A DNA stretch of 31,449 nucleotides from a virus (Duplodnaviria > Heunggongvirae > Uroviricota > Caudoviricetes): the IMG/VR virus record IMGVR_UViG_2541047798_000008. One strand, written 5' to 3'. Of the stretch, positions 11,957 through 24,704 are shown one piece after another. Both the position numbers and the translations under genes were made by a program. Within the stretch, counting starts at the first letter, position 1. Each line of letters begins with the position of its first letter. The notes below the pieces were generated by a model. That model was not told the origin of the DNA. It ran no database searches and was given only the letters and a program-made list of their open reading frames with translations.

Positions 11957-12449
11957 GAATCCTCCCGGCCGGGATAATATTGTGAGTAAAATAAGGAGCG
12001 GGCTGAAGTCCGGAAGTTACAGGACAATGGCAGAAGAGAGACGACAGCCCGCAATTCGAAAAAGACCGCGCAGTTGCGCAGCCTTATGAATTCTGGTTAA
12101 AATCCATTCGATTATAAAAATGTATATCTCATGCTGTTGCCCGAACCCACTCGGGCTTTTTTTTGCCCACAAGAAAGCCCCTCCGGAGAGGGGCTAAAGC
12201 CGCGTATCTGTATCATCATGCACATGATGCCGGGTGCCTCCCGGTGAGTTCAGTATCAGCACCTGAACCCGCACAGAAAGGATAAGGGTCGGTGACAAAA
12301 CACCAGTTGCTGATTGCCCCTCCGCACAGGGGGATTCACCATGCCAGTTTCTTTTAACAAACTCCCCGCAAAACAGACAACTGTCAACCGTCTGAATTGT
12401 GAGACATTTAAAAAAAAGGCCCGCAAAAGCGAGCCGGGAAAAATAAGTC

Positions 12450-12526
12450 TGGCGCGTTGTACTGGATTCGAACCAGTGACCGATTGCTTAGAAGGCAATT
12501 GCTCTGTCCGGCTGAGCTAACAACGC
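12450..12526 (-). tRNA. argO: tRNA-Arg (anticodon UCU)
   Basis: Reverse complement folds as a tRNA (GCGTTGT acceptor arm, anticodon loop CUUCUAA, TTCGAATCC T-loop, CCA end). Confidence 0.85.
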
Positions 12527-12539
12527 ATGATGCAGATAA

Positions 12540-12616
12540 TGGACCGCCATCGGGGACTTGAACCCCGCGCAGCCAGCTTCGAAGGCTGGCGCTCTTTCCT
12601 GATGAGCTAATGGCGG
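12540..12616 (-). tRNA. argN: tRNA-Arg (anticodon UCG)
   Basis: Reverse complement gives a cloverleaf with anticodon loop CUUCGAA and T-arm GGGGTTCAAGTCCCC. The exact 5' end is uncertain by 1 nt. Confidence 0.75.
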
Positions 12617-12623
12617 TATGTGA

Positions 12624-12699
12624 TGGTGGCCCTTGCTGGATTTGAACCAGCGACCTGGCGATTATGAGTCGCTCGCTCTCACCACTGAGCTAAAAGGCC
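12624..12699 (-). tRNA. ileZ: tRNA with CAU anticodon, ileX/ileZ-like (tRNA-Ile2; Met not excluded)
   Basis: Reverse complement GGCCTTTTAGCTCAGTGGTGAGAGCGAGCGACTCATAATCGC...GGGCCACCA closely resembles E. coli ileX. Confidence 0.8.
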
Positions 12700-12725
12700 G
12701 GGCCGAAAATAATAATCAGATGAAA

Positions 12726-13439
12726 TCAAAAATCAAGCCCTTGCATAGATACATATCTGTCTGGCGGGAAGCCATAATAGCGGTGAAATACAGAGATAAA
12801 GTAGGATCTACTTGAATAACCGCATTTTGCTGCTACAGCCTGTCCATATCCATGCCGGGAACATAACATATTTACAGCAACCCGCATCCGTTCCTCAAGT
12901 AACAAATTACTGAACCTGAGACCTTCATCCTTGAGTTTTTTCTTTAACAAGCTCTCACTCATATGCAACTGTAGAGCAATCGCACCAAGCGTCCAGCTTG
13001 CTGATATATCTGTTTGAATTATCGCTCTGACTTTGGCACTTATACTGGATACACATCCACTTAAAAATAATGACATCCGTTCATCTGATTCAAACAGCGA
13101 CAGGCAGGCCATCATAAGAAACATATCCGTGGTCTCTCCGGAAAGTCTCTGACTGGTAATTAAAGCCACAGTCAACGCAGGATTGTTGGGTTCCAGCAAC
13201 AAGTAAAGCGGAATGTCAGTCAGAGGACCTCTCGTCAGCTTATGCTGGCTTTCCAGATATTGACTTACTATAGAATGGCTTATATCGACAATTTTAACTT
13301 TGCCATAATGCATAAGGAAAAGCTCCCTGATGCATTTGGTGGCCAGAACGACTGAGCCGGGCTTAAGTGACAATGTATCCTTTTCAAGAAAAATATTAAT
13401 TGGGGAACAAACCATGATAACTGAACAGATAGCAGTCAT
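12726..13439 (-). CDS. AraC-family transcriptional regulator (237 aa), AT-rich moron
   Basis: C-terminal AraC-type double HTH (WTLGAIALQLHMSESLLKKKLKDEGLRFSNLLLEERMRVAVNML...CGYSSRSYFISVFHRYYGFPP). ATG 13437-13439 without a strong SD. Confidence 0.75.
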   Translation of the reverse strand: MTAICSVIMVCSPINIFLEKDTLSLKPGSVVLATKCIRELFLMHYGKVKIVDISHSIVSQYLESQHKLTRGPLTDIPLYLLLEPNNPALTVALITSQRLSGETTDMFLMMACLSLFESDERMSLFLSGCVSSISAKVRAIIQTDISASWTLGAIALQLHMSESLLKKKLKDEGLRFSNLLLEERMRVAVNMLCSRHGYGQAVAAKCGYSSRSYFISVFHRYYGFPPDRYVSMQGLDF

Positions 13440-13575
13440 TATAATTTTACTTTAATTAGCAATCGGTTAGCTTAATTATAGCCCCAAAAAGTAAATTCTC
13501 ATCAACACATAAGCAAATGACTGACAGGTGCCGCTAACACCCACCAGCCGCCCATTTACCACAAATAAAAAACCT

Positions 13576-13773
13576 TCAGGACTGAAGGACTCTGTAACAA
13601 CCAAACTGATAGTCTGCCAGACCCGCCATAACCAGCTGGGTCAGTATTAACTGGCAGCGTTCGCGTGAAAGGTAAGTATTCTGCGCAATCTCCCCGACTG
13701 TCGCCGGGTCGGTGACGCTTAATTCATTAAACACCACTCTGGCGGTTTCTGTCATATCCTGCTGTTTTAGCAT
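13576..13773 (-). CDS. Small winged-helix regulator, PapI/FaeA-like (about 65 aa)
   Basis: Start placed at ATG 13771-13773 (alternative ATG 13753-13755). VVFNELSVTDPATVGEIAQNTYLSRERCQLILTQLVMAGL resembles PapI-family regulators. Confidence 0.5.
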   Translation of the reverse strand: MLKQQDMTETARVVFNELSVTDPATVGEIAQNTYLSRERCQLILTQLVMAGLADYQFGCYRVLQS

Positions 13774-13895
13774 GTCTTTTTCCCTTTTCCGGTTAACGTG
13801 ACACACCAATAACTCTTGTCGAAAAAGCCAGCAAGCTGAAAGACAGGTATTCACCGCCACCAGCGCGTTTACTGTACTGACGCGATTTCAGTCAT

Positions 13896-13919
13896 AAAAA
13901 ACCCGCCAGGCGGCGGGGT
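13896..13919 (-). terminator. Intrinsic terminator downstream of Q (tR'-like)
   Basis: Minus-strand RNA CCCGCC-GCCU-GGCGGG followed by UUUUUU. Confidence 0.55.
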
Positions 13920-13959: not shown

Positions 13960-13995
13960 TAGGGCAAATTTACCACAGATTCGGGAAAAATCAAC
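13960..13995 (-). promoter_or_regulatory. Candidate late promoter pR' (-35 TTGATT, 16-nt spacer, -10 TAAATT) immediately after Q
   Basis: Minus strand TTGATTTTTCCCGAATCTGTGGTAAATT; position as for lambda pR', with the terminator about 50 nt downstream. Confidence 0.35.
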
Positions 13996-13999
13996 AAAG

Positions 14000-14821
14000 C
14001 TATCTGGTCACCTTTTTCAGTTGTTGTTCTGCCCATGCTTCTTCAATATCAAACTGCACCACCAGCGTATCGTAAAAACGTTTAACTGTTTTTTTCCATG
14101 TATCAAGAGATATGGCATCGGTTACATTACATATGGCATTAAATGCCTCCGTTGAAGGTAATCTTTCATAGCCACGCCCACCACAACGCTGACAGTTTCT
14201 GAAAACCGGCACACCCTGTTTTTCAGACTCTTCACGATGAATGGCAACACCGCGCCCACGACAATCTTTACAGGCAGTGGATACCTCTCCCTTCCCTCCA
14301 CAGTCCGGACAGGCAACTTTGACCACCTCCCTGACTTTTTTCCATTCCTCCCAGTAAGACGGATACACGCCTTTCGTACACTTTGCCCATACCGGCGGCT
14401 TACCATCCGGATACTGGACCTTGTTTGTAAAAACTATGCTTTCAATAAATTTTTCCCCATAGCAACAAGGGCACTGCTTTTTACTCGCTGCGCTGCGGGC
14501 ATAATCCTCAAAAGCGTACGAAGCCATAATGCGCATCACTACCGGTTTTATTTCTGCCGGAAGTTTTCTCAACGCCGCCACACGATCGCACCGACTGAGT
14601 GCATAATCTGCCAGTAATTCTGTTGCCCGCGCCCTGTCATTCATACTGATGCCCATTTTCCCCAGGAACGCAGAAAAACCCATCTCAGCCCGATTCTGTG
14701 TCATGCCCTGCGCGGCCATCACATCAGTGATACTCAGCGCATCTTTTGACGTTGAGGCCGATGCATCGGTCAGACCAGGGGATTTTGGGGAGTAGTATTT
14801 CGGTAAATCTTCCAGTTTCAT
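14000..14821 (-). CDS. Q: Late-gene antiterminator Q (QuuQ-type, zinc-ribbon), 273 aa
   Basis: LPKYYSPKSP, ITDVMAAQGM, RSAASK and CxxC...CxxC blocks match Qin QuuQ as recalled. ATG 14819-14821 overlaps the rusA stop (ATGA). Confidence 0.8.
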   Translation of the reverse strand: MKLEDLPKYYSPKSPGLTDASASTSKDALSITDVMAAQGMTQNRAEMGFSAFLGKMGISMNDRARATELLADYALSRCDRVAALRKLPAEIKPVVMRIMASYAFEDYARSAASKKQCPCCYGEKFIESIVFTNKVQYPDGKPPVWAKCTKGVYPSYWEEWKKVREVVKVACPDCGGKGEVSTACKDCRGRGVAIHREESEKQGVPVFRNCQRCGGRGYERLPSTEAFNAICNVTDAISLDTWKKTVKRFYDTLVVQFDIEEAWAEQQLKKVTR

Positions 14822-24172: not shown

Positions 24173-24364
24173 ATGAGTACAGCCCTTTCTCCGATAGTTT
24201 CAGAATTCGAAACTACCGAACAAGAAAACAGTTACAACGAATGGTTACGCGCTAAAGTGGCGTCAAGCCTTGCAGACCCTCGTCCCTCAATTCCACATGA
24301 TGAGGTAATGGCTGAAATGGAGAATCTTATTGCTCAAATTGCTGTAACTAACAGGAGCGAGTAA
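24173..24364 (+). CDS. Antitoxin of a ParE-type TA pair (PaaA-like), 63 aa
   Basis: ATG 24173 with GAGGAG upstream; stop overlaps the toxin start (TAATG). Size and context fit PaaA-type antitoxins. Confidence 0.65.
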   Translation: MSTALSPIVSEFETTEQENSYNEWLRAKVASSLADPRPSIPHDEVMAEMENLIAQIAVTNRSE

Positions 24365-24651
24365 TGTTACCCATTTTGTGGCTACCATCTGCTCGCGATG
24401 ATTTGCGTCAGATCGTAGCCTATATTGCTAAGGAAAATATTCCTGCAGCACGCAGACTAAAAATACGGATTGAAACGTCTGTTTTAGCCCTCTCTGAGCA
24501 TCCATATCTATATCCGCCAAGTGATCGAGTATCCGGTTTGCGGGAAATTGTGGTTCACCCTAATTATATCGTTTTGTACCGAGTAGCAACTTCAAGCATT
24601 GAAATTGCAAATATTGTGCATGCCCGCCGACAATTTCCCTTCCCTATCTGA
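24364..24651 (+). CDS. parE: ParE/RelE-family toxin (95 aa)
   Basis: LWLPSARDDLRQIVAYIAKENIPAARRL...GLREIVVHPNYIVLYRV...IEIANIVHARRQFP are typical ParE motifs. Confidence 0.8.
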   Translation: MLPILWLPSARDDLRQIVAYIAKENIPAARRLKIRIETSVLALSEHPYLYPPSDRVSGLREIVVHPNYIVLYRVATSSIEIANIVHARRQFPFPI

Positions 24652-24667
24652 ACTGAACAATTTTCAC

Positions 24668-24693
24668 ACTCCCTCATTCGAGGGAGTTTTTTT
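24668..24693 (+). terminator. Intrinsic terminator after the repressor-antitoxin-toxin operon
   Basis: ACTCCCTC-ATTC-GAGGGAGT followed by TTTTTTT. Confidence 0.7.
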
Positions 24694-24704
24694 GCCCAAC
24701 ACAA

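Follow-up and report, generated by a model that had tools for sequence, protein, structure and literature searches.

Positions 12,726 to 13,773 of a lambdoid prophage very probably hold two unrelated elements that happen to be adjacent in the leader of the late genes: a cargo cassette with a psr regulatory gene, and a conserved gene of the phage backbone that encodes a 65-aa protein. The prophage was analyzed as a stretch of 31,449 nucleotides (the window), of which 1291 tested bases are 100% identical to E. coli AR_0017 (NZ_CP024886.1). An initial annotation of the same region had described an AT-rich insert directly downstream of Q, a promoter and a terminator, encoding a PapI/FaeA-like protein of about 65 aa and a 237-aa AraC-family regulator, and had suggested that the two work as a pair on host loci. 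The coordinates and sizes of both ORFs proved correct, and Q, a PR'-like stretch and a terminator do precede them. The two genes are neighbors by position and not a dedicated regulator pair.

Organization of the locus

The rightward genes of the phage are on the minus strand of the window. In the phage direction, Q is followed by the PR'-like stretch, the terminator tR', the 65-aa ORF (hereafter the small ORF), a weak hairpin, a promoter match, the 237-aa ORF and a group of tRNAs; beyond these come the sRNA STnc100 and then the gene for a NanS-p esterase. The features are as follows.

14000-14821, minus strand: gene for antiterminator Q (273 aa; Pfam PF03589, Antiterm, E 5.4e-54), which bounds the locus on its upstream side
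about 13970-13999, minus strand: stretch resembling the lambda PR' promoter, read by eye and below the scan threshold
13896-13917, minus strand: strong tR'-type intrinsic terminator, with a stem from 13917 to 13902 and a T run (scan; hairpin -12.6 kcal/mol, z -2.5)
13857-13864, minus strand: Chi site GCTGGTGG, upstream of the small ORF and conserved in 4/5 aligned phages
13576-13773, minus strand: small ORF, predicted 65-aa winged-helix protein (PHROG 331), the first ORF past tR'
13573-13588, minus strand: weak intrinsic terminator hairpin overlapping the small-ORF stop codon (scan and folding)
13541-13548, minus strand: second Chi site, within a conserved stretch of ~65 nt (13504-13572)
12715-13503, minus strand: psr cargo cassette, ~790 bp, 40.4% GC (delimited by cross-phage alignment and GC)
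13475-13502, minus strand: predicted sigma-70-like psr promoter, ATGAGA-16 nt-TATAAT (10/12 consensus matches)
12726-13439, minus strand: AraC/XylS regulator of the psr family, 237 aa, full length (Pfam; identity to Psr proteins)
12450-12699, minus strand: tRNA cluster ileZ (CAT anticodon)-argN-argO (ARAGORN, RefSeq annotation, Rfam tRNA); downstream boundary of the slot

The Q gene is annotated as "antitermination protein" in the identical RefSeq record. The hairpin at the end of the small ORF (-6.4 to -7 kcal/mol, followed by UUUUUU) retains its stem in phiP27 and SfV despite an altered loop. In strain A34, a deletion has its left end at the Chi site of 13857-13864. Rfam gave no RNA family match inside 12700-13900.

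The 237-aa protein and the Psr family

Judged by its sequence, the 237-aa protein is a full-length member of the published Psr family. Its C-terminal double helix-turn-helix (residues 155-229) passes the Pfam gathering scores of both HTH_AraC (46.5 bits, cut-off 26.6) and HTH_18 (41.9 bits, cut-off 33.6) and so belongs with AraC/XylS regulators, as the initial annotation had it. We assign it to Psr based on its 88–90% full-length identity to known members and its occupation of the same slot as in Sakai Sp4. It is 88% identical to Sakai ECs_1087 (171/195 over the annotated protein), an ORF that can be extended to the same 237-aa start; in one alignment over 237 aa, it is 88% identical to the Sakai Sp4 copy, 90% to the second copy of strain 86-24 and 36% to PatE. 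As alignment with both PatE (ECs_0287, 36–37% identical) and K-12 YdeO (30% identical) begins at residue 1, the 237-aa start is supported. The protein also matches phrog_1450 (E 1.4e-92). The best NCBIfam models were YdeO (E 3.9e-29, positions 1-230 of 253) and GadX (8.6e-26); neither equivalog assignment was accepted, with scores of 102 bits against a cut-off of 348 for YdeO (NF007407) and 90.7 bits against a cut-off of 500 for GadX.

The order Q, small ORF, AraC gene and tRNAs is shared by Sakai Sp4, 86-24, O104:H4, O111:H8 and O39:NM. A second psr copy was sought in Sakai Sp10 and was absent there. Across complete E. coli genomes, psr was found in 726/5426, at 1324 places, and all 727 matching records cover at least 80% of the query; of the findings that would have counted against the initial annotation, neither a truncated AraC gene nor an unconserved small ORF was seen. 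The window's allele is uncommon: 12/727 records match it at 99% nucleotide identity or more, and 659 match at 90–95%. Among its differences from PsrA are residues within or adjoining both predicted recognition helices, such as K168 and R213, so that target specificity could differ from that of PsrA.

PsrA and PsrB are prophage-borne AraC/XylS regulators, mutually 90% identical, that induce GadE and YhiF and in this way lower type III secretion. For PsrB, binding to the promoters of gadE and hdeA (-132 to -45) and an increase in acid resistance are reported, and more Psr homologs occur in EHEC, EPEC and NMEC (PMC10877973; the work of Tree et al, 2011 and Yang et al, 2015 as relayed in that review). 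PatE, also carried by a prophage, is a YdeO-like AraC regulator that activates acid-resistance genes (PMC10877973). ECs1087 is the gene named psrA in a paper on the sRNA HnrS, according to which HnrS raises psrA only indirectly; the text searched showed no connection to the window's locus (PMC13502914). Among the papers covered, a search for literature on ECs1086, Z1788 and Z2103 returned nothing relevant. The AraC part of the locus belongs to a known family at an already described location, and the earlier suggestion of a prophage AraC-like regulator of the kind that rewires acid resistance and secretion is supported by its 88–90% identity to the O157:H7 Psr proteins in the same slot.

The psr cassette and the cargo slot

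We aligned the window with Sakai Sp4, phiP27, SfV and Stx2a_1447. Homology runs from tR' through the small ORF, its terminator and a further ~65 nt, is lost after about 13504 and returns ~15 nt ahead of the first tRNA. Between these limits, the window and Sakai carry psr, and phiP27, SfV and Stx2a_1447 carry an N6/N4 DNA methyltransferase cassette; the psr cassette replaces the methyltransferase cassette of phiP27, SfV, mEp460 and Stx2a phages. The variable slot starts ~35–40 nt past the second Chi site. The AT-rich insert of the initial annotation holds for the AraC cassette (40.4% GC), whereas the small ORF, at 50.0% GC against 48.9% for the whole window, lies outside it in conserved backbone.

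The cassette appears to bring its own promoter. The -10 element TATAAT is invariant among the window, Sakai Sp4, A34 and ETEC1748, and the conserved promoter region is shared with PsrA/PsrB of O157:H7. The psr promoter is only a consensus match of predicted activity, and the sigma-70 scan gave about as many such matches as shuffled sequence (3 against 2.6). The stretch just upstream of the slot, 13504-13572, is conserved with either cargo and forms an imperfect palindrome with a possible hairpin of -18 kcal/mol. The locus illustrates psr as a self-contained cassette that displaces the methyltransferase in a defined slot, limited by a Chi-containing conserved stretch on one side and the tRNA cluster on the other.

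The small ORF is a conserved phage gene

The small ORF encodes 65 aa from its ATG, or 94 aa from an upstream GTG. We found 336 homologs, mostly 63–65 aa long and 80–98% identical, in E. coli, Shigella, Salmonella, Klebsiella, Citrobacter and Buttiauxella. Codon comparisons indicate that it is a real gene under strong purifying selection: dN/dS is 0.04–0.11 between the E. coli, Salmonella and SfV copies, where the ratio is computable, and 0.15–0.2 among close E. coli phage copies, and dS for the window, SfV, Salmonella and Klebsiella copies ranges from 0.6 to beyond the correction limit. The gene belongs to PHROG 331 (E 3.5e-36, residues 1-64 on profile positions 35-98 of 111), a catalogued and uncharacterized family. 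That family is narrow, with 101 representative clusters in 1.84 billion proteins, nearly all of them stand-alone and 60–110 aa long; the same search yielded no informative domain fusions or distant relatives.

These data bear on whether the ORF is a gene at all. It could be non-functional and kept only as a recombination linker between the two Chi sites, where cargo is exchanged. Chi sites do stand on both sides of it, the cargo junction is just beyond the second, and conservation of the noncoding flanks is similar to that of the ORF (76–87% identity, with some pairs more alike there than in the coding sequence). Disrupted copies also occur, in 5/47 psr-linked and 2/58 methyltransferase-linked loci. 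Low dN/dS with synonymous sites near saturation among the E. coli, Salmonella and SfV copies nevertheless argues for selection on the protein, as do conservation down to ~50% identity with its motif retained, a compact fold predicted with confidence and the intactness of more than 89% of copies in unbiased samples. We consider the linker explanation highly unlikely.

AlphaFold2 confidently predicts a winged helix (helices at 4-16, 26-33 and 37-49 plus a beta hairpin; mean pLDDT 90). The top Foldseek matches in the PDB were winged helices of IclR, MarR and O-methyltransferase dimerization type (E ~2e-3, query-normalized TM-score at most 0.81). Two segments hardly vary even in members that are ~50% identical, the N-terminal motif MLKQQDMT and the third helix, RCQLILTQLV.AGL; the conserved third helix suggests that the protein may bind DNA. 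Among 25 family members, Pfam gave sub-threshold matches only, all to generic winged-helix families (TrmB, DprA_WH, MarR_2). The PGAP label "TrmB family" was not adopted, as the match of the window's small protein scores 17.8 bits against a gathering threshold of 25.6 (best E among the 25 members, 3.3e-4). A comparison with SafA was also dropped, as the 65-aa product of safA, the gene ahead of ydeO in K-12, has no similarity to the small protein.

The earlier reading of this protein as PapI/FaeA-like holds only for size and generic fold class. PapI, whose sequence we verified against 2HTJ, is likewise a stand-alone winged helix, and the two proteins span ~65–77 aa. On that reading, a PapI/FaeA-type co-regulator would act with the AraC protein on a fimbrial or adhesin phase switch of the Lrp/GATC type at host loci. 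The relationship to PapI itself has no counterpart in the sequence: the 25 family members gave no FaeA/PapI Pfam match at E<=10, a PDB profile search returned no PapI chain at E<=10, hhalign against PapI (2HTJ) gave a probability of 1.9%, and BLASTP gave E 0.10 over 20 residues. PapI was also absent from the Foldseek top 50, in which the IclR, MarR and O-methyltransferase winged helices ranked best. The targets described for Psr are gadE and hdeA and do not include fimbrial operons (PMC10877973). Together with the distribution described below, this makes the phase-switch explanation extremely unlikely.

Distribution of the small ORF and its cargo

At every inspected locus, the small ORF lies between phage Q and tR' on one side and late-region cargo on the other, and it follows Q proteins from three different Pfam families. 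The hosts of the lambdoid phages with this arrangement include E. coli, Shigella, Salmonella, Klebsiella and Citrobacter. A methyltransferase stands downstream of it in Salmonella, Klebsiella, phiP27, SfV, mEp460, Stx2a_1447 and a divergent metagenomic member; the phage gene pairs are L23-L24 in phiP27, orf47-48 in SfV and gp52-53 in mEp460 (52% identity). The small ORF also lies between Q and stx in Stx2-converting phages such as phiP27. Using the small ORF as the query, we found 80 loci in IMG/VR, 4 of which end at a contig edge. In the remaining 76, the next gene is the methyltransferase in 60 and psr in 4, with neither within 400 nt in 12; of these 12, 11 run straight into STnc100/NanS-p and lack both a cargo gene and tRNAs, and the other has a partial methyltransferase match that is displaced.

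When the 5426 complete E. coli genomes were searched, tR', the small ORF and psr as one joint query gave 5192 matching places and the methyltransferase 3507, compared with the 1324 for psr given above. These counts agree with the IMG/VR loci; they are per query, and adjacency in E. coli was read from sampled loci. The small ORF may be present in up to 2454/5426 of these genomes, a figure obtained with the joint query, which includes tR' and psr as well.

The small ORF is present in 725/726 psr-positive genomes, and 42/47 distinct psr-linked IMG/VR loci have an intact copy. Nearly all psr loci thus retain it, so the distribution is compatible with a functional interaction, and the phase-switch explanation could draw on the same figure. 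Against that explanation, however, the small ORF is a backbone gene that usually sits beside a methyltransferase or no cargo gene, an identical 65-aa protein occurs upstream of both cargos, and loci in which the small ORF carries a frameshift (Sakai Sp4, ETEC1748) or has been lost by deletion (strain A34) still have an intact psr. We rejected the idea that small-ORF alleles have co-adapted with psr, given the identical protein found with both cargos; the allele differences cluster in the last ~8 residues, by the junction, which fits linkage. We also considered whether the small ORF decays once the methyltransferase has been replaced, which the counts of disrupted copies (5/47 against 2/58) do not support (Fisher p = 0.24).

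Another possibility is that the small protein controls the cargo slot by binding the ~65-nt stretch just past its own terminator (13504-13572) and governs transcription into the next gene, by analogy with a controller protein of an orphan methyltransferase. The small ORF, a gap of ~150 nt and the methyltransferase have been kept together in mEp460, at 52% identity, and in metagenomic locus L023; the nearly invariant third helix is what would be expected of a recognition surface, and the downstream stretch, with its hairpin or palindrome, is conserved in both cargo contexts. Yet the small ORF remains intact without any methyltransferase, a terminator separates it from the cargo, and its predicted fold is a winged helix, whereas classical controller proteins are Xre-type. 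The conservation of the flank could also simply reflect recombination among phages. We regard this explanation as unlikely, with a small but appreciable chance of being correct; if it holds, it would bear on the expression of prophage toxin and regulator genes.

Proposed roles of the two genes

Our preferred reading remains that of two unrelated elements. The psr cassette behaves as a classic moron, AT-rich and with its own predicted promoter, from which the regulator would be made by the resident prophage, by analogy with the relatives that are 88–90% identical. Its product would bind the host gadE and hdeA promoters and turn on the GAD acid-resistance regulon; in strains carrying the LEE, GadE may then lower type III secretion. 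Gene identities, gene order, the exchange of cassettes, purifying selection and the predicted fold are direct results of the analysis, whereas we infer these targets in the present host, as well as the activity of the promoter, from the Psr relatives and the consensus match, respectively. The AraC regulator is likely to act on host loci, the half of the earlier proposal that survives for the supposed pair. For the AraC gene, little follows beyond the addition to the Psr family of a less common allele from a host that is not O157.

The scan found no sigma-70 match between tR' and the small-ORF start codon. With no recognizable promoter of its own and a position between terminators, the small ORF is most likely expressed only on Q-mediated read-through of tR', which would make it the first late gene. 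Our best guess for its product is a small late protein that binds DNA for the benefit of the phage and is not a partner of Psr. A bolder version, to which we give only an outside chance, is that the 65-aa protein, whose gene is the first past tR' in thousands of lambdoid prophage copies, is a late regulator, dependent on Q, and gates transcription into the cargo slot, whether this holds the methyltransferase, psr, tRNAs or Shiga toxin. If true, this would add an uncharacterized layer of control over prophage virulence cargo.

Comparison with known systems

Among regulators, the closest systems are PsrA and PsrB, which share with the window protein the AraC/XylS C-terminal domain, a length of 237 aa, 88–90% full-length identity and a location between Q with the small ORF and ileZ-argN-argO. 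They differ in allele, with ~10–12% of residues changed, some of these in or near the predicted recognition helices, and in host, being from O157:H7, whereas the window matches the non-O157 strain AR_0017. PatE (Z0321/ECs_0287, from CP-933H/Sp1) can be aligned from residue 1 but is only 36–37% identical, and its gene is near the end of Sp1 with neither Q nor the small ORF upstream. YdeO, GadX and GadW are chromosomal AraC regulators of acid resistance, in contrast to the window protein, which is carried by a phage with its own predicted promoter.

For the small protein, the likeness to PapI/FaeA is that of small stand-alone winged helices of similar size, a generic feature; there is no detectable sequence relationship, and the window's gene is in a phage late leader with no fimbrial operon. 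Classical controller (C) proteins of restriction-modification systems are small, have an Xre-type helix-turn-helix and are co-transcribed with the genes they control. The small ORF was not assigned to this class, as it encodes a predicted winged helix, is separated from the methyltransferase by a terminator and persists without it. Its closest counterparts are phiP27 L23, SfV orf47 and mEp460 gp52, which belong to the same PHROG 331, are 52–97% identical and occupy the same position after Q and tR'. The label "TrmB family transcriptional regulator" that PGAP applies to this family derives from a Pfam match below the cut-off. These three phages differ from the window in what comes next, as each carries an N6/N4 DNA methyltransferase at the place where the window carries psr.

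Chi sites at the cargo junction

Chi (GCTGGTGG) occurs 13 times in the 31.4 kb window, where shuffling predicts 1.08 copies, and none of 100 shuffles of the whole window (0/100) contained as many as 13. Most of these sites (10/13) are oriented with late transcription, on the minus strand.

7638, 8276, 13541, 13857, 14059, 16022, 17346, 23066, 23111, 28561 (-): Chi sites
11738, 15564, 15616 (+): Chi sites

Two of the minus-strand copies (13541-13548 and 13857-13864), in the same (direct) orientation, flank the small ORF, which encodes the 65-aa winged-helix protein. The second in the direction of transcription, at 13541-13548, falls in the conserved stretch beyond the small ORF's terminator, where it is contained in a predicted hairpin, or imperfect palindrome, of ~14 pairs (13510-13556 (-), -18.1 kcal/mol, z -2.3); the hairpin stretch is common to the loci linked to psr, the gene for the AraC/XylS regulator, and to those linked to a DNA methyltransferase. 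Approximately 35-40 nt beyond this second Chi is the junction at which cargos alternate (psr, methyltransferase or no cargo gene). In strain A34 (L021 1746-1990), the small ORF has been deleted, and the deletion endpoints are these same two Chi-containing repeats. Considering the Chi pair, the position of the cargo junction and the ends of the A34 deletion, our analysis suggests a role for the conserved block as a recombination linker through which cargo is exchanged.

The IMG/VR loci also included "empty slot" variants (L024, L049, L050, L056, L066, L067, L070, L091, L096, L100 and L102), in which the small ORF is intact and the STnc100/NanS-p region comes immediately after it, with neither a cargo gene nor tRNAs.

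A chromosomal paralogue was considered as well. In K-12 MG1655 (L016 3927-4960), ydeO is preceded by safA, a two-component connector gene of 65 aa. As no sequence similarity was found between safA and the phage small ORF, their equal size looks like coincidence, and safA was rejected as a counterpart.

Other prophage features

The AR_0017 prophage is identical to that in the window, and its RefSeq annotation gives the following window positions:

~24300-25500 and 30400-31449: RelE/RelB toxin-antitoxin pair, hokD, dicB and integrase
30469-30558: tRNA-Ser

The integrase is annotated there as frameshifted, so the prophage may be unable to excise properly.

RNA genes downstream of the cargo

In the interval that separates the tRNAs from the NanS-p gene, the Rfam scan identified an sRNA and, on the opposite strand, an anti-sRNA scoring exactly at the gathering score; the AsxR-related AgvB model stayed below threshold in this interval.

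12165-12373 (-): sRNA STnc100 (131.7 bits, gathering score 47)
12109-12161 (+): anti-sRNA AsxR (63 bits)

The tRNAs 3' of psr differ among prophages, being Ile-Arg-Arg in the window type and as follows in two others.

L017 (ETEC1748) 2741-3050: Ile-Thr-Gly, downstream of psr
L021 (A34) 2730-2960: Ile-Arg-Gly, downstream of psr

The tRNA at 12624-12699 (-) was called tRNA-Met (CAT anticodon) by ARAGORN. In RefSeq it is tRNA-Ile (ileZ), with which the ileZ-argN-argO cluster of Stx phages usually begins.
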